Positions 9-37,292 of a stretch of 64,000 nt of DNA are shown one piece after another. The translations under genes were made by a program, and so were the position numbers. Position 1 is the stretch's first letter. Every line of letters starts with the position of its first letter. The DNA comes from a virus. Lineage: Duplodnaviria; Caudoviricetes. The DNA lies in the IMG/VR virus record IMGVR_UViG_2511231106_000004, positions 32,001 through 96,000 of that record; one strand, given 5' to 3'. The notes beneath the pieces were generated by a model that saw only the letters and a program-made list of their open reading frames with translations, had not been told where the DNA came from and ran no database searches.

Positions 9-794
9 TCATACAAACCACCTGTTGGTATAGGTAATTTCCACCGTGCCCGCTCCTCCTGTGTACAGAAAGAGGTTGGCTCCCGGTTTGGCATGGAGGA
101 AGGTGCCCGTAAAGGCATTGATGCTGTTGTCTTTATCCCGCCAGACTGTCCCTTCCCGGCCATTCACAATGGAGGTCTTGGGAGCCACCAGCAGTGCATC
201 CGTCAGGGTGAACTTCTCTTTGGCTTCCTGGTGCCAGACCGTAAGGTTCGTCATCCGGTCCAGGGGAATGAAGCGGAAAGTGAGAGGCGTATCCACGCTC
301 CCCAGGTTGTGGAGCACCATTTCTGCCTGCACCGTGGCCTGGGGAAAGACGAACACCACCCGGGATTCCTGGGCTTCGTAGCGGAACGGGTCTGCCAAAA
401 GCAGGGATACTGTGATGTTGCTCCGCCTCTGTTTGAAACCGTTCTCAAACTTGTGCTTGATCTTGGACAAACAGGCTACATGGTAGACCCGGTCCGGTCT
501 TCCCGCCATCAGGGAATAATCCGTCTGGCCAAAGAAGGTGTAGGCCTCGTTCAGCACTTCGTCATGGTCTTCTTCCGTAGCACCTTCCATGGAAAACTCC
601 ACCTGGAGAGTCCGTCCGTCAATCTTTCCATCCCCCACTGCATCACTTCCATGGGCAAAGGCCCGGGACTGGAGCTTGCTCCGAAAAGTATAGCTGCCGC
701 TGTCCGTAAGGCTCCAATGGACCGGCAGCTTGTATTCCACCCCGTCTTTGGTGATGGTAAAATTCTGTTCGTTTTCTTTTCTTTCCGGAAACAT
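9..794 (-). CDS. Siphovirus distal tail (Dit-like) phage tail family protein
   Basis: Downstream of tape measure; 'LLADPFRY', 'NLGSVDTP' and a C-terminal 'TYTNRW' typical of Dit-like proteins. Confidence 0.7.
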   Translation of the reverse strand: MFPERKENEQNFTITKDGVEYKLPVHWSLTDSGSYTFRSKLQSRAFAHGSDAVGDGKIDGRTLQVEFSMEGATEEDHDEVLNEAYTFFGQTDYSLMAGRPDRVYHVACLSKIKHKFENGFKQRRSNITVSLLLADPFRYEAQESRVVFVFPQATVQAEMVLHNLGSVDTPLTFRFIPLDRMTNLTVWHQEAKEKFTLTDALLVAPKTSIVNGREGTVWRDKDNSINAFTGTFLHAKPGANLFLYTGGAGTVEITYTNRWFV

Positions 795-26289: not shown

Positions 26290-26437
26290 GCCGTATCAAT
26301 GTTCAGACTATCCGTCCAGCTTTTGGAATACCCGCTTGCTGGTCGGTCATAATGAAATCGAACTTACTGATTGCAGATTATATTTCTGCATTTGCGGTAT
26401 TCAGATTCACAGCCACACAGAAAATTCCACACATGCA

Positions 26438-26446
26438 TGGTATAAT
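26438..26446 (+). promoter_or_regulatory. Extended -10 promoter for the plus-strand operon
   Basis: TGgTATAAT about 150 nt upstream of ATG 26597. Confidence 0.55.
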
Positions 26447-26515
26447 GTTAGAAAACCAGTAGTCACACTTCCTTCCACCTCCCGTCTTCAATTTCTGATT
26501 TCATCCTATTCTTGA

Positions 26516-26576
26516 TAAGGTTACTGTCAATCCGTAGTCCGGGTGGTTAAGGTTACTAACGATACTTAAGCTTACT
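26516..26576 (+). promoter_or_regulatory. Three direct repeats TAAG(G/C)TTACT, operator candidate
   Basis: Copies at 26516, 26548 and 26567, just upstream of the AGGAGG RBS. Confidence 0.5.
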
Positions 26577-26596
26577 TTTTTTCAGGAGGTACTGTT

Positions 26597-27988
26597 ATGC
26601 CCTCACAAAACAACTTCCACGTTCCCCATTTATGCGGTGGTATCCTGTTCAATCTTTTACTGGAAACAAGAAAAACACGCGGAAAAATCCGTGACAGGGC
26701 ACATGGCGGAACAGACGGTCTTTCTGATTTGGATGTATATATAGGACTTGTAAATGTTGTAGCTGGCAATGACTGGAAAGATGTTGACGGGACAACAAAA
26801 AATAAATGTGTATCTAACTATAAAAGGTGCGTGGACAGCACAGGTTCATATGTTCCTTTTACTGATGAGGTTTTTAGGAAAGCCTTCGATTCGGAATACA
26901 ATAAAAAAAGCCCTGCCCTCCTTGAAAGGATGGCAAGGTTCATAGAACAGTATTTGAGTCTTGAAAAGTGCAAGTGGCTTGGCAAAGCATTGATTGAAAT
27001 CATGCAAAAAGACCCTTCAATCAATGATGATGCCGAAATTGCTGTAGACTTTGGACAAAATATTTCTGTAAAAAAACTGCATGAGGCAAAGAACATTCAC
27101 TTTTTGCCTTTTTTCCTAAGCGTACTGCATTACGTAATCGATAATTGCCCTGACTGCGAATCCGGGCGGTCCACCTTTGAAACCTGGTATTGCCAAGTTG
27201 GTCCGAAAGCGCCATGGAAACCCAAACATGATGTACTCAGTAAACTCGGTGGCACCATCGGCGATATGGAAGTGTCAGTGAATCTGGAAGTTCAGAAAGC
27301 CATTACGATAAAAGATGCAGAACATAGAAATTCCGAGAGTACATCTTCTGCAGATGAATGCTCATCGGAAAAGCCAGATAAAAATAATGATATTCTTTCA
27401 TCCGAATCCCCGCTTTCCAACCGTGATACCACTCTTTTACCCCGGCTGGCGAAGGGATTCAACAAAATATTGAAGTTTGCCAAAGACACGGACCTCAGTA
27501 TAGAACGTATGCCTTCCGAAATTCTGAATACCTTTGAGACCCTGTATAATGAATGGAAGGATCAAGACACGGACTTTAAAGATCCGGAACTGAATAAATT
27601 GAAATATGACATTCTAAATACATTGTATTGGTATATCAACTTCTGGGGAACTCATCTTTGGCTCAACGATGATTCTGATTGCTTTGTCCACCTAAAAAAT
27701 ACGTACAAAGATTCCTGGAAAAAAGAAGGAGAACTTCGTCAGCAGGCCATGAAGGACAGAGAAGCTTTCACCCGTCTGCATGAAAGGCTTTGTCGGTATA
27801 TCATAGACTTTGATATCGATCTAAACAAAACTGAACCAGTTGAAGCCAAGGTCGTAGAAGAAACGCCGCCTCTGGAAAATAATCAAGGCGGCAGCCGGAC
27901 TACAATTATCGAGCACCAGACCAATATCGGCCACAGTGTGTCAAAGACATATAACATAAAGGACAGCACTGTCACATTTAATGATTAA
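26597..27988 (+). CDS. Hypothetical protein (463 aa) with C-terminal amyloid-like motif
   Basis: AGGAGG RBS; ends QTNIGHSVSKTYNIKDSTVTFND. Confidence 0.85.
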   Translation: MPSQNNFHVPHLCGGILFNLLLETRKTRGKIRDRAHGGTDGLSDLDVYIGLVNVVAGNDWKDVDGTTKNKCVSNYKRCVDSTGSYVPFTDEVFRKAFDSEYNKKSPALLERMARFIEQYLSLEKCKWLGKALIEIMQKDPSINDDAEIAVDFGQNISVKKLHEAKNIHFLPFFLSVLHYVIDNCPDCESGRSTFETWYCQVGPKAPWKPKHDVLSKLGGTIGDMEVSVNLEVQKAITIKDAEHRNSESTSSADECSSEKPDKNNDILSSESPLSNRDTTLLPRLAKGFNKILKFAKDTDLSIERMPSEILNTFETLYNEWKDQDTDFKDPELNKLKYDILNTLYWYINFWGTHLWLNDDSDCFVHLKNTYKDSWKKEGELRQQAMKDREAFTRLHERLCRYIIDFDIDLNKTEPVEAKVVEETPPLENNQGGSRTTIIEHQTNIGHSVSKTYNIKDSTVTFND

Positions 27989-28001
27989 GGAGAAACAATG
28001 T

Positions 28002-28652
28002 ATGAAGAATTTAACAGCTCCTGGCCCACATCAAGTGCGGCCGATAGCCCAAACGAATATAGGGAATCAGGTCATAAAGACATACAACATTCAGGACAGC
28101 AACGTTAACATCTATAATACGTTTCCACCTAACCAAGGGAATCCATATAGTGCAGCCCAAATGATTGCACTCAATAATTTCAGCAAAGAATATTATCAGC
28201 TCCTCGTTACCTGTGAAACAGATGTCTTTGAAAATAATAACGCCACATTTCCCTTAGACCGTGCGTTAAGTCAAAGGTATGTTCCGGAAGAAATATTAAC
28301 CCGTTGTTCGTCTTTGTCAGAAGAAGGGATTGCCGAACTGAAGACCTTTCCGGCCATTGTCTGTATGGAAAACACAGGGTTCAATGGAATTACAGATCCT
28401 AATCAAACCGCGATATTCGCATATATAACACGAGTAAAAATGGAAGGCTACCAAGTTAGAGTGGCGTTCCAGCCCATTGCACCATTCCATCAAAAAATAC
28501 TTTGTGAACAGAAATATGCTATTTATTTCGACTTGAACATGAGTTGTGCCATTACGGATTTGAATCGCACTGCCTGGTCTATCCATAAAGTGAATCTTTT
28601 TGAAGCTTTCAATGAGTCTGGACTGGGATATCTCCCGCACCCTTCTATTTAA
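28002..28652 (+). CDS. Hypothetical protein (about 216 aa) with matching N-terminal amyloid-like motif
   Basis: AAGGAG RBS at 27987, ATG 28002; QTNIGNQVIKTYNIQDSNVNIYN near the N-terminus, then a globular domain ending LNRTAWSIHKVNL. Confidence 0.85.
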   Translation: MKNLTAPGPHQVRPIAQTNIGNQVIKTYNIQDSNVNIYNTFPPNQGNPYSAAQMIALNNFSKEYYQLLVTCETDVFENNNATFPLDRALSQRYVPEEILTRCSSLSEEGIAELKTFPAIVCMENTGFNGITDPNQTAIFAYITRVKMEGYQVRVAFQPIAPFHQKILCEQKYAIYFDLNMSCAITDLNRTAWSIHKVNLFEAFNESGLGYLPHPSI

Positions 28653-28664
28653 AGGTGACTGTCT

Positions 28665-31016
28665 ATGAACAGAAAATATCCAAGCGAAATAACAGAAATT
28701 AGAGTGGATGATGCAACCTTTAAAAATACAGGCACTGTCATCACCCCCACCTATATCAACTACTTTTTCGGAAACAACGGCACGGGAAAATCCACTATTG
28801 CCAAAGCAATCCAATCTGGAACTGGCATCAAGTATGCTCCAGGAAGATCTGCCACAGACTACCAGGTATTGGTTTTCAACCAAGAATATATCAATCGAAA
28901 TATGCAGAACTTCCATAACCTTCCAGGTGTTTTTACGATGGCCGAGGAGAATGCAGAAATCCAGGACAAGATTGATGAGGCTGCAGAGCAGCTGGCTGAT
29001 GCACAGGAAAAAGTATCAGATGCCACGGATGAAAAAGAAAAATTAATTAAAATAAAAAAAGAAATCTGTACAAAGTTCTACGATGAAATCTGGCGGCGGA
29101 CTGGAAAACTGCGTAAAACATTTCCAGGCACACAGGCTGGATACCTCAAATCAAAGGCTAATTTAGCCGACAAAGTAAAACTGTGTTCACCCAGCGAATA
29201 TGATTTGGATGATCTTAAACGGATGTATGATTCTGCCTACTCTTCTACAGCACAGAGCTATCCTCGCTTTAATACAATTAGCGATACTACTGTGCTTGAC
29301 AGCATTGAAGGCAGCGAAATTCTATCTGTTGCAATTGTCAATTCCTCAGATACCCAACTTGCAAAATTTTGGAAGAAAATCAAGGCTTCCGAATGGGTGC
29401 GTCAAGGCCATTCTGCATATCATGGCAAAACCGATGGGAAATGCCCTTTTTGTTCACAGCCTTTGCCTTCAGAATTTGAAAAATTCTTGACAGACAGTTT
29501 TGATGACCAATACGAGAAGAACCTTACAAAGCTATCAGCATTCCTTGAAGATTACAGAAACACAGCCAACGCTTTATTTATGCCTTTGTCAAAACTTCCA
29601 GAACCGCTATATCCTGTCCTTGATGAAAAACCCTACAAGGATAAACTGGAAGCCCTAAGAGGTATTATTTCTACAAACATAAACCGGATAAAAGAAAAAA
29701 TAGCCGAACCTTCTAAATCTATTAAATTGGATAATACCGCACCACTACTACAAGAACTCCAAAAAATGATTACAGATTATAATAAACTAATTTCTGATAA
29801 CAACATGGTAGTTGCTGATGCCCCTAAGAAAAAAGAAGAATGCAAAGAAAAAGTCTTTTCTTTCATGTCCTTCATAACAAATGAAACAATCAAGGCTTTC
29901 AACAAAAGTATCTCTGACATTAATAAACAGCTAAACAAGCAACAGGAAATCATTGATACTCAGACAGAGCAAGGTGCGGATATCAGAGAAGAAATCCGTG
30001 TTCTAAACAGCCAGACAAAAGAAACTGAGTCCGCCATGAACAACATAAACCTTATGCTGAAAGATGCCGGATTCCAGGGATTTAAAGTCTGTCCCCACTG
30101 GGAAGAAAGAAGAAATCCGGATGGTTCTGTAAAACGAGTGATTCCTTCGCCGATTCGTAACTATGCTGTAGTCCGTACCGATACCGAAACAGGAGAAGAA
30201 GAAATTGCACATGACCTTAGTGAAGGAGAAAAGAATTTCATCGCCTTCCTGTATTTCCAGCAAACTGTATTCGGGAGCACTGACGCAGACAGCGATTCTC
30301 TGCAAAAAATAGTTGTTATTGATGACCCCGTTTCCAGCATGGACAGTGGTACGCTTTTTATTGTAAGTGCTCAAATCCGTAAGATGATCCATATTTGCCG
30401 AAACAATGTTGACAACCGGCAACCGGCAGCAGATGGAAATTTCATCAAGCAGATTTTCATTCTTACCCATAATGCTTATTTCCATCGAGAGGTAAGTTAC
30501 CTTTATGCCCGACAGTGGAACTTTGTATCTTTTTACCTGGTCCGCAAAATCAACAATAAATCTTCCGTCCAGTTGTTTGAAAAGCAGAACCCCGACTGCC
30601 CTACCAAAATGATGAATGTCAATCCCGTCAAGAACTCCTACGCTGCCCTTTGGGAATCTTATAAGGAAGTCCGGAGCGGTATCCCGTTAAAGAGCACCAT
30701 CCGCAGGATTTTAGAATATTATTTCCTGCAATTATGCGGCTATGAAGGAGACGATTTGAGAAAACGTATCCTGGAAGACCATAAGAACAACTTTCTATAT
30801 GACGAAAATGGCCATGAAACTCCAGAACGATACGAGATGGCTAAGGTCCTTCTGTCTTACATCATCTCCGATAATTCCAGCGTGAATGATGGAATCAACT
30901 ACACGGACGATTTCCTCGATGAACAGCTTTACAGGGATACATTTAAAATGATTTTCAAATACATGAATCAGGAACAGCACTTCAATATGATGATGGGTAA
31001 CGAACAAGGAGAATAA
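28665..31016 (+). CDS. RloC-like SMC/ABC ATPase (AAA_13) with zinc hook
   Basis: GNNGTGKS Walker A, coiled coils with central CPFC, LSEGE signature, VVIDDPVSSMD Walker B/D-loop, LTHN H-loop, C-terminal IRRILEYYF domain. Confidence 0.9.
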   Translation: MNRKYPSEITEIRVDDATFKNTGTVITPTYINYFFGNNGTGKSTIAKAIQSGTGIKYAPGRSATDYQVLVFNQEYINRNMQNFHNLPGVFTMAEENAEIQDKIDEAAEQLADAQEKVSDATDEKEKLIKIKKEICTKFYDEIWRRTGKLRKTFPGTQAGYLKSKANLADKVKLCSPSEYDLDDLKRMYDSAYSSTAQSYPRFNTISDTTVLDSIEGSEILSVAIVNSSDTQLAKFWKKIKASEWVRQGHSAYHGKTDGKCPFCSQPLPSEFEKFLTDSFDDQYEKNLTKLSAFLEDYRNTANALFMPLSKLPEPLYPVLDEKPYKDKLEALRGIISTNINRIKEKIAEPSKSIKLDNTAPLLQELQKMITDYNKLISDNNMVVADAPKKKEECKEKVFSFMSFITNETIKAFNKSISDINKQLNKQQEIIDTQTEQGADIREEIRVLNSQTKETESAMNNINLMLKDAGFQGFKVCPHWEERRNPDGSVKRVIPSPIRNYAVVRTDTETGEEEIAHDLSEGEKNFIAFLYFQQTVFGSTDADSDSLQKIVVIDDPVSSMDSGTLFIVSAQIRKMIHICRNNVDNRQPAADGNFIKQIFILTHNAYFHREVSYLYARQWNFVSFYLVRKINNKSSVQLFEKQNPDCPTKMMNVNPVKNSYAALWESYKEVRSGIPLKSTIRRILEYYFLQLCGYEGDDLRKRILEDHKNNFLYDENGHETPERYEMAKVLLSYIISDNSSVNDGINYTDDFLDEQLYRDTFKMIFKYMNQEQHFNMMMGNEQGE

Positions 31017-31020
31017 TGAA

Positions 31021-31224
31021 ATGCGTATCAGCTACAATAAACTATGGAAGTTGTTGATTGACAAAAATATGACCAAGATGGAATTAAAGGAAGCAGCCGG
31101 AGTAAGTTCCGCTTCGATTGCAAAGCTCGGCAAAGGTGCCAATATTACAACCGATGTCCTGCTTAAAATCTGCGAGGCCCTTCATTGCCGTGTAGAAGAT
31201 ATTATCGAAACGATCAATGATTAA
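31021..31224 (+). CDS. Small Cro/C1-type (HTH_26) regulator
   Basis: 'ISYNKLWKLLIDKNM.K.EL...G.S.ASIAKLGK..NITTDVLLKICEAL'. Confidence 0.92.
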   Translation: MRISYNKLWKLLIDKNMTKMELKEAAGVSSASIAKLGKGANITTDVLLKICEALHCRVEDIIETIND

Positions 31225-31225
31225 A

Positions 31226-31270
31226 AAAAGGACTCCATGTAAACTGATATAGTCTGCATGGAGTCCTTTT
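31226..31270 (+). terminator. Intrinsic (possibly bidirectional) terminator
   Basis: AAAAGGACTCCATG...CATGGAGTCCTTTT. Confidence 0.75.
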
Positions 31271-31290
31271 CTCACATAAACCATGAACGA

Positions 31291-33960
31291 TTACCAAACT
31301 ATTGAACGGTGGTCTTTTATCCTATCGTTCAGATGTTGTGCATTTATGACTTTAGAAAGAATATTCCTGAATACACAGATATTCTTTTTAGGGGAAAATA
31401 AAAAATGAGCCTTCGAAGGAAAATCCTTCAGAAGCCCATATATCAAGCCGCTTTTACTGTTTGGGGTGCGGAAAATTTTTTTATCAATACGGAAAGGCTT
31501 ATTTTTATCATCTTTATCATTTATCCGTACACGTTCTACCTTATGCCGGTCATTATCCTTGCCAGAAATACGGTCCACACGGAACCGATCAGCAGATGCC
31601 ACTTTTTCAACTTCAGGAGCAAATTCGCTCAAAGAACGTCCCATATCTGCATCTACAGGAGCCCCGTTTTGTAACGCACGATAGACAATAGCTGCATATT
31701 CATAACGAGTCATTGCTCGATCGCCTTTAAACTCACCATCTGTATATCCATTTAAATAGCCTCTATCGGCCAAACTCTTAACATACTGATAGGCCCAATG
31801 GTCTTTTGGAACGTCCGAGAAATTAACATTTCTCATAGGAGAAACTGTGCCAGCTTTCATCATGTTTTTCAATTCATCAAGTTCTTGGCGCATTTCCAAA
31901 TTATCATTACGTAAGGCAATAATTTCTTTTGCCATAGATACCTTAGACCGGCTAACAGTACTCTTCTGTCCCAGTTTAAAAGTCACGCCGGCATTAACCA
32001 TGTTTTCTCCACCACCGAAGCTCCCTCCGACAGAAAACATAGTATCTTCGTTAGGTCTATAGAAAGCTCCTACAGCTACAGCATGGGCATCTTTGTAGTT
32101 ACCATAACCTGTTGCAAAGTCCCACTTATTATCGGGATCAAAATCTTGGGGATGAAGAGCTGATAAAGCTGCTGCACCAGCACCGACTCTGTTTATACGG
32201 GTATCCATTTTATCTAATCTGCCAGTTAAAGAGCCTCCCGGAAGCTGTATATCATTGAAATAGCCTACACCCGCATGAACATCTCCTTTAATATTTGCAT
32301 CACCATCTACTTGGAGATTTTGTTGAATATGAGTATCACCAGCGATGGTTGTATTCCCACCAATATTGGTATTGCCGTCTACCTGGAGATCCTGTTTCAG
32401 GTGGGTGTCACCACCTACCGTTGTATTGCCGTCAATATTGGTATTGCCGTCTACCTGAAGATCCTGTTTCAGGTGGGTGTCACCGCCTACCGCTGCATTA
32501 CCGTCAATATTGGTATTGCCGTCTACCTGAAGATCCTGTTTCAGGTGGGTGTCACCACCTACCGTTGTATTGCCGTCAATATTGGTATTGCCGTCTACCT
32601 GAAGATCCTGTTTCAGGTGGGTGTCACCACCTACCGTTGCATTGCCATCAATATTGGCAGCACCTCCGATGTGGGCATCGCCAATGGTAGTAATAGAATC
32701 AAACGTTGGGTTCTTGTCCATCTTGACTGTGATGGTCGTATTGCCTGCTCCGTCTTGGCTCACAACGGTTTTGAGGTTATCCCCGGAGTATTCGGTGTCC
32801 GCTTTTGCGCCTTCACCTACTACGTTAACTGTACTCCCCAGTTTGGCCGTAGCCGGATTTGCCGCACCGCTTGCAGAATTGGCACCAAACTTCAGGCCGT
32901 TATTGATGAGTGTCTGCCCGTACTGATATACGCCATTGCTGGTAGCGAGATCTGAATTCCCAGCTGCAATCGTGTCTGTGCCATTTACGCTGATAGTATA
33001 ATTAGTACTTCCGCCAGCACCTGTATTAGATGATACCGAAACGTGGCTTCCACCTGTAATAGTGGTTCGAGCAGCAGCTGCAGCCTGTGCTACAGCAAAG
33101 AGCTGTGAACCATTTACTGCGTCTGTAGACCCTGCATCCACACGTCCAGCAGCCAGATGCGTCAACGTACGTTGTGTAGTGCCGTTGCCTATGGAAACCG
33201 TTCCATTGACATTGGTTCCTGCGAAGTTATAATTCTGGCTTCCAATGGTCATTCCTGCAGTTGAGACGGCTCCTTCTGCAGACGAACCCGCACCTAAGGC
33301 AACAACATTTGAAAGTCCGTCTATATTAATTCCTGCCCCTAACGCAACATTATTATTTCCGTTTGAGATATTATTACCTGTCCCCAAGGAGACACTATCA
33401 AAAGAATTACTACTTGTACTGCCAGTACCTATGGAAATCCCATTACCAACGCTATTTTCGATTTTTACGCCCTGTCCTATCCCGATAGTTGTTGTGCCCA
33501 ATGCATATCCTGATAATCCTGTAGTGGTAGGTACTGAATCAATATTGCCGATCATAATAGATGCATAGTCAGCTCTAGCACCAGTTCCGATTGCAATGGC
33601 TCCGGTATTGACGTCTTGGCTTAACGGATTGCCAACAGATGCTTTAGAATTGGCGCCGATAGCAATAGCTGTATTACCACTATGTCCATTTGAAGCAGTA
33701 CTATCTACTGCAGCTGCATTGTCGCCAATCGCGATACCCTGTTGGTACTTATGGGCTCCATCACCCGATGTTACACCCTCGGCAAATGCGGTTCCCAAAC
33801 TAAGGCTTGATCCTAACAGTACAGCAAGTGCGCCGGCTACTACTCTGCCAGTGACTCCAAGCTTGTTCCCATTATTCCTTCCGTAACTTTTTGCCAGTTC
33901 AGAAGTAACCACATAGCAGTTACGCACCCGATTCCAAACCAACTTATAAATTCTGTTCAT
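31291..33960 (-). CDS. YadA-like trimeric autotransporter adhesin with ESPR signal, YadA anchor and C-terminal SLH domain
   Basis: MNRIYKLVWN..RNCYVVTSELAK (ESPR), AIAIG head repeats, 'LAAG....STDAVNGSQL' stalk/neck, 'GAGAAALSAL...AVGAFYRPNE' anchor, 'FSDVPKDHWAY...GY.DGEFKGDRAMTRYE' SLH. Confidence 0.92.
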   Translation of the reverse strand: MNRIYKLVWNRVRNCYVVTSELAKSYGRNNGNKLGVTGRVVAGALAVLLGSSLSLGTAFAEGVTSGDGAHKYQQGIAIGDNAAAVDSTASNGHSGNTAIAIGANSKASVGNPLSQDVNTGAIAIGTGARADYASIMIGNIDSVPTTTGLSGYALGTTTIGIGQGVKIENSVGNGISIGTGSTSSNSFDSVSLGTGNNISNGNNNVALGAGINIDGLSNVVALGAGSSAEGAVSTAGMTIGSQNYNFAGTNVNGTVSIGNGTTQRTLTHLAAGRVDAGSTDAVNGSQLFAVAQAAAAARTTITGGSHVSVSSNTGAGGSTNYTISVNGTDTIAAGNSDLATSNGVYQYGQTLINNGLKFGANSASGAANPATAKLGSTVNVVGEGAKADTEYSGDNLKTVVSQDGAGNTTITVKMDKNPTFDSITTIGDAHIGGAANIDGNATVGGDTHLKQDLQVDGNTNIDGNTTVGGDTHLKQDLQVDGNTNIDGNAAVGGDTHLKQDLQVDGNTNIDGNTTVGGDTHLKQDLQVDGNTNIGGNTTIAGDTHIQQNLQVDGDANIKGDVHAGVGYFNDIQLPGGSLTGRLDKMDTRINRVGAGAAALSALHPQDFDPDNKWDFATGYGNYKDAHAVAVGAFYRPNEDTMFSVGGSFGGGENMVNAGVTFKLGQKSTVSRSKVSMAKEIIALRNDNLEMRQELDELKNMMKAGTVSPMRNVNFSDVPKDHWAYQYVKSLADRGYLNGYTDGEFKGDRAMTRYEYAAIVYRALQNGAPVDADMGRSLSEFAPEVEKVASADRFRVDRISGKDNDRHKVERVRINDKDDKNKPFRIDKKIFRTPNSKSGLIYGLLKDFPSKAHFLFSPKKNICVFRNILSKVINAQHLNDRIKDHRSIVW
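32290..32690 (-). repeat. Intragenic 72-bp (24-aa) tandem repeat, 4 near-identical copies plus degenerate flanks
   Basis: GTGGGTGTCACC at 32401, 32473, 32545, 32617; unit GGDTHLKQDLQVDGNTNIDGNTTV. Confidence 0.95.
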
Positions 33961-34041: not shown

Positions 34042-35613
34042 TCACATTCCCACATGTATTTTCGTACCATTCTTAAAAACTATTTGAATTTTTACTTTAC
34101 TGTATACTATAATGAAGTCTACCAAACTGCACCACAGCCTTTCGTCAAACTCATATACAAGATTTTGTTTCTGCAGATTTTTCATAAAGTTATCCAGCTT
34201 CCAGTATCTGTCCACACACTGCTGTATGGCATCACAGACCTGATCATACTTCTTCTTCGTTTCTTCATACCGGCTGACCAGCCCGTTGTACTTCCTGCCA
34301 TATTCATCCTGGTCCTGTGCCACCTGGGCATTCTCAGCAATGAGCTGTTGCACCTGGTCGGTCAACATGTTCAGGTCTAATTCCAGCGCATCACGTTCCT
34401 TTTCCAAAGATGCGGTATCTGTAAGACGCTTTTTCAGCATCGTGATATTGCTCAGAATATCTTCCTTATTTTCAATAAGCTGATTGACTGCTCGGATAAA
34501 AGCACCTTTAATTTCATTCTCCGTCAGGTGCGGCGTCTGACAGTGATTCTTGAATTTGTCATTGCAGCGGTAGATGGTTCTCCGGTACTTATCAGTCGAA
34601 TGCCAGACCTTGGCCCCGTACCAGCCGCCGCACTGGCCGCATTTGATTTTACTGGAGAAGATGGATACGCCGCTGTAACGTTTTTTCCTTTTACGCCGCC
34701 TCTTGATTTCCTCCTGTACCCAATCGAATACCTGCGGGCTGATGATAGCTTCATGGTTATGTTCCACATAATACTGTGGCACTTCCCCTTCATTTTTCTT
34801 TGTCTCTTTTGTCAGAAAATCAACCGTGATTTTTTTCTGAAGCAGGGCATCCCCTTTATACTTTTCATTCATGAGAATACTTCGGATCGTGTTAGCTCTC
34901 CAGATTTTGCAACCAGCTGGAGTGGGAATCTTGCGTTCCGTCAGTTCTTTTGCAATAGAATGAAACGTGTATCCGTTAAGATACAAACGGTAAATCAACT
35001 TTACGATTTCTGCCTGCTTTTTATTCACTACCAGGTTGCCATCCATTCCCTTATCATACCCAAGAAAATGAGTGAATGCCAGACTGACCTTCCCATCAGC
35101 AAACCGTTTCCGGTGTCCCCAAGTCACATTCTCAGAGATGCTGCGGCTCTCTTCCTGTGCCAGAGAACTCATAATCGTAATGAGGAGTTCCCCTTTTGCG
35201 TCCAGTGTCCAGATATTTTCCTTTTCAAAATAGATTTCAATCCCTTTATCTTTCAGTTTTCGCACGGTGGTCAAGCTGTCCACCGTATTCCTGGCAAACC
35301 GGCTGACAGATTTTGTGATGATAAGGTCAATTTTGCCGGCTATAGCATCCGCTATCATTCGCTTAAATCCTTCCCGGTGTTTGGTATTCGTAGCTGAAAT
35401 GCCTTCATCCGTGTATATCCCGACAAATTCCCAATCATTTCTGCTCTGGATATAACGCGTATAATAATCCACCTGTGCTTCATAGCTAGTAAGTTGCTCA
35501 TCGTGATCCGTTGAAACCCGTGCATAGCCTGCCACCCTTCTCTTTTTTTGACTGTTCATCGGCTTTTTCGTATAACTCCGCAGTGTAGCTGGAATTACCT
35601 GCACTTTTTTCAT
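34042..35613 (-). CDS. Large serine recombinase (integrase)
   Basis: 'YARVST', 'DEGISAT', 'TKSVSRFARN', recombinase domain, 'KIKCGQCG' zinc ribbon, coiled coil. Confidence 0.95.
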   Translation of the reverse strand: MKKVQVIPATLRSYTKKPMNSQKKRRVAGYARVSTDHDEQLTSYEAQVDYYTRYIQSRNDWEFVGIYTDEGISATNTKHREGFKRMIADAIAGKIDLIITKSVSRFARNTVDSLTTVRKLKDKGIEIYFEKENIWTLDAKGELLITIMSSLAQEESRSISENVTWGHRKRFADGKVSLAFTHFLGYDKGMDGNLVVNKKQAEIVKLIYRLYLNGYTFHSIAKELTERKIPTPAGCKIWRANTIRSILMNEKYKGDALLQKKITVDFLTKETKKNEGEVPQYYVEHNHEAIISPQVFDWVQEEIKRRRKRKKRYSGVSIFSSKIKCGQCGGWYGAKVWHSTDKYRRTIYRCNDKFKNHCQTPHLTENEIKGAFIRAVNQLIENKEDILSNITMLKKRLTDTASLEKERDALELDLNMLTDQVQQLIAENAQVAQDQDEYGRKYNGLVSRYEETKKKYDQVCDAIQQCVDRYWKLDNFMKNLQKQNLVYEFDERLWCSLVDFIIVYSKVKIQIVFKNGTKIHVGM

Positions 35614-37247
35614 GACAACTTCACCTCCTTCGTATGACCATCGTTAAATTGAAACAGCAATGTTTCGTTATCCTGTACTTCAATACGCTGCACTTGTGCT
35701 CTAAATGCTGTATCATCAAATTCCAATTTCCCCATTGTTTCTGCTGCCATACGCTGCAGCCATTCTTCTTTGATGCTTCTTACATGGATGCATCTATGTT
35801 CTCCCCGGCACCGCCAATAAGCCACTTTTCCATTCTTACGTTTCTCTAGACAACGTATGAATTTTGTCTGGCACGCAGGACATACAATGCGTTCCGAAAA
35901 AGCGGTATAACGGCCGGACGTATCACGCTGATGATACGTTTCCATCCATTGCCTCTGCTTTTTCTTCTGCTCATCCGTCCACATATCCTTTAAGGCTGTC
36001 GATTTCCATTCCTGTGTGATAACGTTTCCATCTTTGAAATGAAATACCAGCGTGTGATAAGAAGGAACAACAATCTTCTTTACCCGCTGAACAAACAGTT
36101 CTTCATCAAATTCATCTGTACCCAGAACGGCTGCGCATGCTTTTTTCAAAGCGGGCTGCGGGATGGAGCCATAGGCCCCGCAGTTTGTCCCCTTGCCCTT
36201 ATGCGAATCACAGGTCCAGTATTCCCGTATTCTTCCCTTGTATTTCCGAACAACATGGACATAGCTTTTCCCGCAGATGCCACATTTGATGATCCCCGTA
36301 AAGCAAGAGGTGTTCAAAAAATCCCTGGCATATCCGCCCCGCTGCATTCCCATTTCCTTGCGATTCTTTAATTCCTGCTGAACCCGTTCAAACATATCAG
36401 AAGAAATTATGGCTTCATGATGCCATTCCACTACATACCTATTCCTTTCTCCATGATTAACGGCCTGGCGTTTGGTAATAGGGTCCGTCACAAAGGTTTT
36501 CTGAATCTCAAGAACGCCCGTATAAATCCGATTCGTAAGAATCTGCCTGATACTGGCATCTTTGAAATAGTTCCCATACATGGTGCGAATCTCCCGCCGC
36601 TTTAGTTCCCGTAATATATCTTTTCTGGTTCTGCCCTGCAGATAGGCATCAAAAATTTCTCTGACAATCGCGGCCTCTTCTGGTTGGATGACCAGATTAT
36701 CTTTCTCCCAGCAATAGCCGTAAACGAAGAACTTTGCATGAGGAATCCCCTGTTCAAACTTTTTACGAAACCGCCACTTGATATTATCACTGATGGATCG
36801 GCTTTCTTCCTGGGCAAAAGAGGCAAGGATGGTCAGCATCAACTCTCCATCTCCGCTCATGGTATGGATATTTTCTTTCTCAAACCAGACTTCAATACCC
36901 AGTTCTTTCAGGTGACGTACCGTCTGCAGAAGGTCAACCGTGTTTCGGGCAAACCGCTGGATGGATTTGGTCAGGATGATGTCTATCTTCCCGGCTTCGG
37001 CATCTTCCAGCATCCGCCGGAATTCCTGCCTCTTCTTTATCCCCGTCCCAGAGATGCCGTAGTCCGCATAGACCCCGGCGTATTCCCAATTCGGATTTTT
37101 CTGTATCAGCTTGCTATAATAACTGACCTGTGCCGAAAGGGAATGGTGCATCCGCTCCGATTCCATGGAGACACGGGCATAGGCTGCCACTTTCTTTCGT
37201 TGTTTCAGTCCGGATATTTTTTGTTCGATTTTACGGATAGTCCGCAT
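35610..37247 (-). CDS. Large serine recombinase
   Basis: 'YARVS', 'DYGISGT', 'TKSIQRFARN', two zinc-ribbon-like CxxC regions. Confidence 0.93.
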   Translation of the reverse strand: MRTIRKIEQKISGLKQRKKVAAYARVSMESERMHHSLSAQVSYYSKLIQKNPNWEYAGVYADYGISGTGIKKRQEFRRMLEDAEAGKIDIILTKSIQRFARNTVDLLQTVRHLKELGIEVWFEKENIHTMSGDGELMLTILASFAQEESRSISDNIKWRFRKKFEQGIPHAKFFVYGYCWEKDNLVIQPEEAAIVREIFDAYLQGRTRKDILRELKRREIRTMYGNYFKDASIRQILTNRIYTGVLEIQKTFVTDPITKRQAVNHGERNRYVVEWHHEAIISSDMFERVQQELKNRKEMGMQRGGYARDFLNTSCFTGIIKCGICGKSYVHVVRKYKGRIREYWTCDSHKGKGTNCGAYGSIPQPALKKACAAVLGTDEFDEELFVQRVKKIVVPSYHTLVFHFKDGNVITQEWKSTALKDMWTDEQKKKQRQWMETYHQRDTSGRYTAFSERIVCPACQTKFIRCLEKRKNGKVAYWRCRGEHRCIHVRSIKEEWLQRMAAETMGKLEFDDTAFRAQVQRIEVQDNETLLFQFNDGHTKEVKLS

Positions 37248-37292
37248 AGAATCAGCTCCTTTCAACACTATATATCCCTCTTTTTTAACCAA

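Follow-up and report, generated by a model that had tools for sequence, protein, structure and literature searches.

The 64,000-nucleotide stretch of DNA considered here (the window) comprises positions 32,001 to 96,000 of a 111-kb virus record, IMGVR_UViG_2511231106_000004 (Duplodnaviria; Caudoviricetes), and includes four plus-strand open reading frames (ORFs) in a tight row, with intergenic gaps of 13 nt (g1/g2), 12 nt (g2/g3) and 4 nt (g3/g4). The first of these, g1, encodes a protein in the effector position, g2 an adaptor, g3 an ATP-binding cassette (ABC) ATPase resembling the SMC (structural maintenance of chromosomes) proteins, and g4 a small helix-turn-helix (HTH) protein (Table 1). 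We read this cassette, with a probability of just under 60%, as an abortive-infection defence built on the ABC ATPase, in which the effector is coupled in trans by a pair of amyloid-like motifs. The initial annotation of the window had described the four genes as a tightly packed AT-rich operon, and coordinates, gaps and base composition were all confirmed, GC content being 0.40-0.43 over 26-32 kb as compared with 0.51-0.57 in the flanks.

A matched pair of terminal motifs

The motifs that end g1 and begin g2 are identical at 14 of 21 residues. Eight of these 14 residues are encoded by different codons, so what is kept is the protein sequence and not a repeated piece of DNA. A motif of about 22 residues that ends the upstream protein and also begins the next is present in 34 of 34 non-identical loci, drawn from metagenome-assembled genomes (MAGs) and prophage predictions among which kinship inflates simple counts. 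At least three types of motif can be distinguished: type A, found in the window; type B, the commonest; and type C, found on several prophage contigs. When a simple pattern classifier was applied, the two motifs of a locus were alike in 29 of the 34 cases (B/B 20, C/C 5, A/A 4), the other five pairs being typed as unlike or left untyped. The alignment score of cognate motifs averaged 55.8, against 37.8 +/- 1.8 for permuted partners, and none of 10,000 permutations reached the cognate value; against composition-shuffled g2 N-termini the motif score was 54 versus 26 +/- 6. Effector classes and docking domains differ among the loci in which the three types are found. The matching of the motifs and their covariation are direct observations, and the amyloid-motif pair first noticed in g1 and g2 of the window extends to matched pairs in every locus of the set.

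The motifs are enriched in N (4.9-fold), Q (2.1-fold), G (1.9-fold) and V (1.6-fold), with T also raised, and depleted in K, P and L (0.4-0.5-fold); I, at 1.05-fold, is not enriched. The mean aligned length is 22 residues. The bacterial amyloid signalling sequences (BASS) and the fungal amyloid signalling motifs are about 25 residues long, with Q, N, G, V and I increased and K, P and L decreased (10.1101/2020.01.06.895854). The composition bias and length of the present motifs therefore match those of published BASS motifs, apart from the lack of enrichment in I. Both motifs of the window lie at the extreme termini of their proteins beside disordered linkers, and beta-hairpins are predicted for them by AlphaFold2 (AF2). 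The likeness to BASS is one of composition, length and position.

The four proteins

In the AF2 model of g1, which has a mean predicted local distance difference test (pLDDT) score of 83.7, an all-helical N-terminal domain (N-domain, aa 7-235 approximately) is followed by a disordered linker, a four-helix bundle (aa 275-404 approximately), a second disordered linker and a beta-hairpin (aa 449-462). No match to g1 was found in Pfam, NCBIfam, PADLOC or PHROG, nor by sequence in the PDB, and no DNA-binding domain is detectable. A Foldseek search of the PDB, made with the full model, returned nothing below an E-value of 0.7, and the lists from VIA-align were filled by the generic four-helix bundle at aa 275-404 (Z of about 8). 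One uncharacterised siphovirus protein was found in BFVD and no usable match in the ESM Atlas. In STAND proteins (signal transduction ATPases with numerous domains) and in LmuA the N-terminal position is that of the effector, and the N-domain of g1 is therefore best read as an effector. The g1 protein is probably a cell-killing one, and its N-domain is possibly directed at the membrane. Homologues of g1 are numbered P0121-P0192 in what follows.

In related loci the effector gene is often damaged although g2-g3(-g4) is intact. One locus (L052, 5798-7774) has a truncated copy next to a transposase-like ORF, another (L001, 2785-4177) a copy frameshifted at its 5' end, and in the Limosilactobacillus antri locus (L028, 5970-6861 / L050, 6974-7865) the gene is split into two ORFs. 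Selection against a toxic gene is one possible cause of this damage; errors of assembly are another.

The adaptor g2 has a conserved C-terminal domain (C-domain, aa 48-216 approximately) and its family comprises 386 clusters at 50% identity. In the AF2 model residues 1-42 fall below a pLDDT of 50, as expected of a disordered N-terminus, and residues 50-216 are mostly near 90. Searches of Pfam, NCBIfam, PADLOC, PHROG and PDB sequences gave no match to g2, nor did it match any C-terminal domain (CTD) family, the same being true of g1; the clusters returned by the ESM Atlas are all unnamed and for the most part viral. In VIA-align the top 17 matches consist of EVE, YTH, ASCH or McrB-N type domains together with the N-terminal region of DrmA (Z 4.3-6.5), and the best Foldseek E-value is 5.8e-3. 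The C-domain probably has a PUA-like fold, the structural scores being middling. Structural comparison of both proteins, for which the initial annotation had proposed Foldseek, has given a weak PUA-like assignment for g2 and none for g1.

The g3 protein matches Pfam AAA_13 (4.8e-111) and, over aa 9-781, the PADLOC family PDC-S06 (1.8e-199). The best match to the LmuB models is 2.6e-17, where the true LmuB of a Lamassu locus described below (L031) scores 2e-238, and the PrrC model (7.6e-07) aligns only to aa 517-608, within the ABC part. Weak coil matches to Rad50, JetC and LmuB models extend over aa 90-460. There is no PDB sequence match to g3, and none of the four proteins matches the LmuC or MC models. 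Walker A, hook, signature and Walker B are conserved in 21-24 homologues, as are R680/R681..E684 and H772 in the C-terminal domain; C260, P261 and C263 of the CPxC hook are invariant in 21 homologues, and R681, E684 and H772 are likewise invariant. The distance from the R..E pair to the invariant His is about 88 residues and differs from the spacing in PrrC. The g4 protein matches Pfam HTH_26 (4.4e-18) and resembles VanU, although below the cut-off of that model. It is 62-100% identical in those related loci that have it, the Lamassu locus L031 included, and is a probable XRE-type HTH regulator of the cassette. The initial annotation had named g3 as an SMC-like ABC ATPase with a CPFC zinc hook and g4 as an HTH_26 protein, and both identifications are upheld. 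It had also presented the four genes as a candidate new system: g1 and g2 are indeed unmatched in PADLOC, but g3 belongs to the candidate family PDC-S06, which PADLOC treats as a single-gene candidate system.

Distribution of the cassette

A scan of species-representative genomes for the g2 family found 28 loci, in Negativicutes, Clostridia, Lactobacillaceae and one Desulfobulbaceae MAG, and the core is also present on many prophage contigs. In 25 of the 28 loci g3 lies directly after g2, and in one more it lies 362 nt downstream; g4 follows g3 in 23. The search from the side of g3 covered 401 Negativicutes genomes, drawn around the genome that holds locus L019, and found an AAA_13 relative in 16 of them. 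A g2-family gene is present within about 360 nt upstream of all 11 full-length AAA_13 matches with at least 35% identity, and upstream of none of the six matches with 31% identity or less. Gene order and co-occurrence are therefore observed from both sides, and the proposal that these genes belong together holds across genomes in the form of a recurrent g2-g3-g4 core.

The gene 5' of g2 varies. Two unrelated classes of N-domain were found there, class I being the N-domain of g1 and class II a domain of about 125 aa, and the linkers and middle domains of the upstream proteins also vary between loci. Two of the loci have an excisionase-type HTH gene inserted between g2 and g3 and lack a g4 after g3. 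One genome that holds an identical copy of the window cassette has in addition a second g2-g3 pair, 38-40% identical, with this g2-HTH-g3 layout and without g4 (L070; G285:C1:824550-829817); the gene downstream of it resembles a type I restriction-modification (R-M) subunit. The g2-HTH-g3 layout recurs in locus L061. Genes neighbouring the cassette include those for Dcm-like methyltransferases and type I R-M subunits, named from N-terminal sequences only, and the cassette is carried on prophages, unrelated ones among them.

Exchange of domains with STAND and Lamassu proteins

Searching IMG/VR for the g1 family gave 25 loci, and longer proteins were found in further searches. The N-domain of g1 is the N-terminal domain of NACHT+SNaCT14 proteins (L032, L033) and of NB-ARC proteins of 1,200 aa, and in P0180 it is joined in one chain to CTD6 (8.1e-34), a docking domain of Lamassu. 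Locus L031 encodes a g1-like protein with a type C motif at its C-terminus and, next after it, a 234-aa protein whose N-terminus bears the matching motif. The remainder of this second protein is the C-terminal half of LmuA (PADLOC 2e-69; Pfam CTD6 4.6e-33), and genes for LmuC/MC2 (1.3e-53), LmuB and a g4 homologue (84% identical) come after it. By these matches L031 is a true Lamassu locus in which LmuA has been split by the motif pair into an effector and a docking protein. The split-LmuA arrangement is present again in L033, with a type B motif.

Covalent forms of the same partnership exist in the g2 family. Of the best 150 family representatives, 29 are at least 280 aa long with the g2 domain at the C-terminus and constitute all-in-one forms; in 23 of these 29 blastp places a domain of class I or class II ahead of the g2 domain. 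A few cis fusions retain one motif in the linker and most retain none. Run on 20 of the cis-fused g2-family proteins, Pfam named no effector domain. An apparent g1-g2 fusion in L007 was rejected as a clean fusion since a deletion has cut into its N-domain. These domain swaps are directly observed. The g2 C-domain takes in the cis fusions the position of the CTD, and CTD6 has the matching motif logic in L031 and L033; the sequence comparisons are such that the C-domain is best read as a docking domain for the AAA_13 ATPase, in the manner of Lamassu.

Further fusions of the g1 N-domain were seen with a GmrSD_N (DUF262) fragment (P0185) and, in Lachnospiraceae-type proteins (P0187, P0190, P0192), with an unnamed C-terminal domain of about 250 aa. 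At L032 (9733-12743), L034 and L038 the NACHT+SNaCT14 gene is followed by genes for an NgoFVII-type phospholipase D (PLD) restriction endonuclease and a Z1-domain protein, a neighbourhood that may be a composite defence island.

Layout, transcription signals and surroundings

The positions of the features are collected in Table 1.

Table 1. Features of the cassette and its right-hand neighbours. Nucleotide positions are those of the window; aa positions are those of the protein.
Feature	Position	Strand	Description
Extended -10 element	26438-26446	+	TGnTATAAT (TGgTATAAT), from sequence; about 150 nt 5' of g1
g1	26597-27988	+	ORF, 463 aa; effector-position protein
C-terminal amyloid-like motif of g1	27917-27979	+	aa 441-461, type A
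g2	28002-28652	+	ORF, 216 aa; adaptor, N-terminal motif and conserved C-domain
N-terminal amyloid-like motif of g2	28050-28112	+	aa 17-37
g3	28665-31016	+	ORF, 783 aa; AAA_13 ABC ATPase / PADLOC PDC-S06
Motifs of g3	aa 36-44; 260-263; 518-522; 549-554		Walker A; CPFC hook; signature LSEGE; Walker B
g4	31021-31224	+	ORF, 67 aa; XRE-type HTH (HTH_26)
Terminator-like hairpin	31230-31273		bidirectional; between g4 and the convergent adhesin gene
Adhesin gene	31291-33960	-	trimeric-autotransporter type (ESPR signal, YadA stalk and anchor, SLH domain)
Tandem large serine recombinase genes	34042-37292	-	523 and 560 aa (Resolvase + Recombinase + Zn_ribbon_recom)

The cassette was held in the initial annotation to have an extended -10 element and a terminator of its own, and both were located. 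The stem of the hairpin is perfect over 10 bp (31230-31239 / 31257-31266), with an A run before it and a T run after; it had been overlooked by the consensus scan because its loop is 17 nt long. An AAGGAG ribosome-binding site precedes the g2 start at 28002 by 9 nt; the alternative ATG at 27981 has none. The operon is covered by RNA-library contigs from three studies. Contigs from two of the three begin at 26464 and 26466, with the bin upstream empty, which is a weak hint, RNA libraries being able also to contain DNA, of a transcription start close to these positions from the extended -10 promoter. Length variation in the 5' leader is also seen in RNA-library contigs, two runs of one study having one extra T at position 26575 in the T run just 5' of the g1 ribosome-binding site.

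To the left of the cassette, on the minus strand, lie genes for a sigma-like protein, an Ant antirepressor, a DUF7768 protein and a primase-helicase. The cassette does diverge from these genes, as first described, but they are early, regulatory and replication genes and not the lytic genes for which they had been taken. Nor is the cassette at the very end of the element, where the initial annotation had placed it, since the adhesin gene and the two large serine recombinase genes, which overlap by 4 nt, intervene. The final 100 or so residues of the adhesin seem unrelated to the remainder, and the gene may be a moron or have a disrupted 3' end. Near-identical copies of the cassette (26300-31300, at least 93% of sampled words) are present in metagenomes of several studies, among them samples of bovine gut, pig, landfill and bioreactor origin, and the element is widespread in anaerobic habitats.

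Relationship to known systems

Amyloid signalling has been described for the Bell/NLR (NOD-like receptor) pairs of Actinobacteria and Cyanobacteria (10.1101/2020.01.06.895854) and has been established in phage defence for Bab/Agp of E. coli (10.1101/2024.11.07.622273). The cassette shares with these systems (BASS1-10 and BASS11 respectively) the adjacency of the two genes, an N/Q/G/V-rich motif of about 22-25 aa that closes the effector and opens its partner, disordered linkers and the existence of all-in-one fusions beside split pairs; like the cassette, Bab/Agp is also found in prophage. It differs from them in that the partner is neither an NLR nor a tetratricopeptide repeat (TPR) protein but an adaptor of 216 aa that goes with an ABC ATPase; in L031 this place is taken by LmuA's C-terminal half. 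The hosts differ too, being anaerobic Firmicutes, and the effector domains, which form two unnamed families, may be distinct from Bell as well.

With Lamassu and the ABC-3C systems the cassette has in common a putative coiled-coil ABC ATPase sensor combined with variable effectors and, perhaps, the use of a conserved docking domain, and in P0180 and L031 the g1 N-domain occurs in the place of a Lamassu effector. In contrast to Lamassu, g3 is an AAA_13/PDC-S06 protein and not an LmuB, there is no LmuC/MC gene in the cassette, the putative docking domain is a different, probably PUA-like one, and effector and docking domain are separate proteins linked by the motif pair. The AAA_13-type ABC head and the long insert with a CxxC hook are shared with RloC, PrrC and PDC-S06, and the conserved C-terminal Arg-Glu...His may be a further point in common. 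As to differences, g3 always comes with g2 and usually also with an effector gene and an HTH gene, and it departs from PrrC both in the restriction of the model match to the ABC part and in the R..E-His spacing. The NACHT and other STAND anti-phage proteins have the g1 N-domain as an N-terminal domain in the effector position, but here the NTPase is an ABC ATPase and there is no STAND NTPase in the window.

Proposed mechanism and alternatives

Rad50, RloC and LmuB sense DNA ends or replication intermediates, and by analogy g3, a Rad50/RloC-like AAA_13 protein with a zinc hook, would be the sensor of infection, with DNA ends or replication structures as its likely trigger. The C-domain of g2 would dock on g3, in the role that the C-terminal domain of LmuA has in Lamassu, and its disordered N-terminus would present the motif. 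Activation of g3 would then gather g2 motifs into a beta-rich, amyloid-like nucleus able to template the C-terminal motif of g1, whereupon the g1 N-domains would oligomerise, switch on and arrest or kill the infected cell. Transcription of the cassette would be controlled by g4. It is possible that the PUA-like domain of g2 reads modified phage nucleic acid and so helps to nucleate the fibre. Of the two alternatives offered in the initial annotation, one was an anti-phage system of the abortive kind whose ATPase would reach an effector by amyloid templating, and it is supported by the conserved core, the co-varying motifs, the effector-position N-domain, the R-M neighbours and the carriage on prophages. 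All the comparative results fit it; its biochemical steps we infer: that g2 binds g3, what triggers the sensor, that the motifs become amyloid, that g1 is toxic and what g4 does. The wider proposition that ABC-ATPase sensors, of the AAA_13/PDC-S06 kind and in some true Lamassu systems, use amyloid templating between a docking adaptor and a separate effector is put forward tentatively, at somewhat less than even odds.

Several points weigh against a templating defence of this kind. The amyloid state of the motif is deduced from sequence and predicted structure, and g1 is called an effector by position alone because its N-domain is without a recognisable fold or catalytic signature. PDC-S06 is itself a candidate family, with no test reported in the literature searched. 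The PUA-like fold predicted for g2 hints at the reading of a ligand and not at simple docking, and g3 may be an active RloC-type nuclease, and thus an effector in its own right, because the R..E pair and the invariant His are conserved in its C-terminal domain. Finally, as the motif-free fusions demonstrate, a covalent link can stand in for the pair, which fits a permanent tether equally well.

This last point leads to the strongest of the alternatives, to which we would give perhaps one chance in five or a little better: that the defence system is the same, with the motif pair acting as a lasting beta-zipper and not as an amyloid. The zipper would hold the effector on the adaptor-ATPase complex at rest, much as effectors are sequestered in Lamassu, until activation releases it. 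Since effector domains are fused without a motif both to the g2 domain and to CTD6, the pair is equivalent to a covalent link, and the split LmuA of L031 is a parallel to intact LmuA. However, the literature gives as hallmarks of amyloid signalling motifs the composition and length seen here, a terminal position behind disordered linkers and the presence of fused as well as split forms beside NACHT and NB-ARC proteins, and the single linker motif kept by some cis fusions would be needless for a simple tether.

It is unlikely that the operon combines two functions, g3 being a self-sufficient RloC-type anticodon nuclease and g1-g2 a separate amyloid pair in which the PUA-like domain of g2 is the sensor, for example of modified phage nucleic acid. 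Such a division would be consistent with the single-gene status of PDC-S06 in PADLOC, with the invariant R681, E684 and H772 and with the resemblance of the g2 C-domain to EVE, YTH, ASCH and McrB-N readers. It does not account well for the adjacency of g2 and g3, which is strict across 35-100% g3 identity, with g2 absent beside more distant AAA_13 proteins; the fold scores, moreover, are middling, and motif pairing of this sort also serves CTD6, the docking domain of Lamassu, which argues for docking and not sensing as the task of the g2 domain.

The second alternative of the initial annotation, a prophage lysis/lysogeny switch with g1 as regulator, would suit the site between recombinases and divergent early genes, a frequent position for a repressor where no CI-type repressor was seen, but it is very improbable given that g1 has no detectable DNA-binding domain and shares its N-domain with NACHT, NB-ARC and Lamassu effector proteins, that the cassette lies beside R-M genes in loci from bacterial genome assemblies (which may or may not be free of prophage) and in unrelated prophages, and that g4 travels with the cassette and not with the phage.

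Implications

BASS signalling, Lamassu and RloC/PDC-S06 are already known or candidate kinds of system. What appears from the sequences to be new is amyloid-type signalling with a different architecture of receptor, PDC-S06 in a multi-gene setting, and Lamassu in a split version. In a limited literature collection no paper linking amyloid signalling with Lamassu was found, nor, among the papers listed, one linking it to an ABC ATPase, and the ASMscan paper mentions neither ABC nor ATPase. PDC-S06 is not a single-gene system here: every relative examined that is at least 35% identical to g3 has an adaptor gene, and such relatives usually have an effector gene and a regulator gene as well. Two new candidate cell-death domains and a new candidate docking domain can be named, and the natural motif types A, B and C lend themselves to a compensatory-swap test of the pairing.

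Amyloid signalling in bacterial immunity has so far been a matter of NLR-type receptors and one E. coli pair, Bab/Agp. If the templating defence proposed here is correct, the cassette would be the first case of amyloid signalling outside STAND and TPR receptors and would represent a widespread phage-borne defence family of anaerobic Firmicutes with two new effector domains. It would also explain the swapping of effectors between STAND and SMC-like systems. The locus and its relatives suggest that the amyloid device joins effectors to ABC/SMC-type sensors, Lamassu included, and that functional amyloids may have a wider role in immunity.

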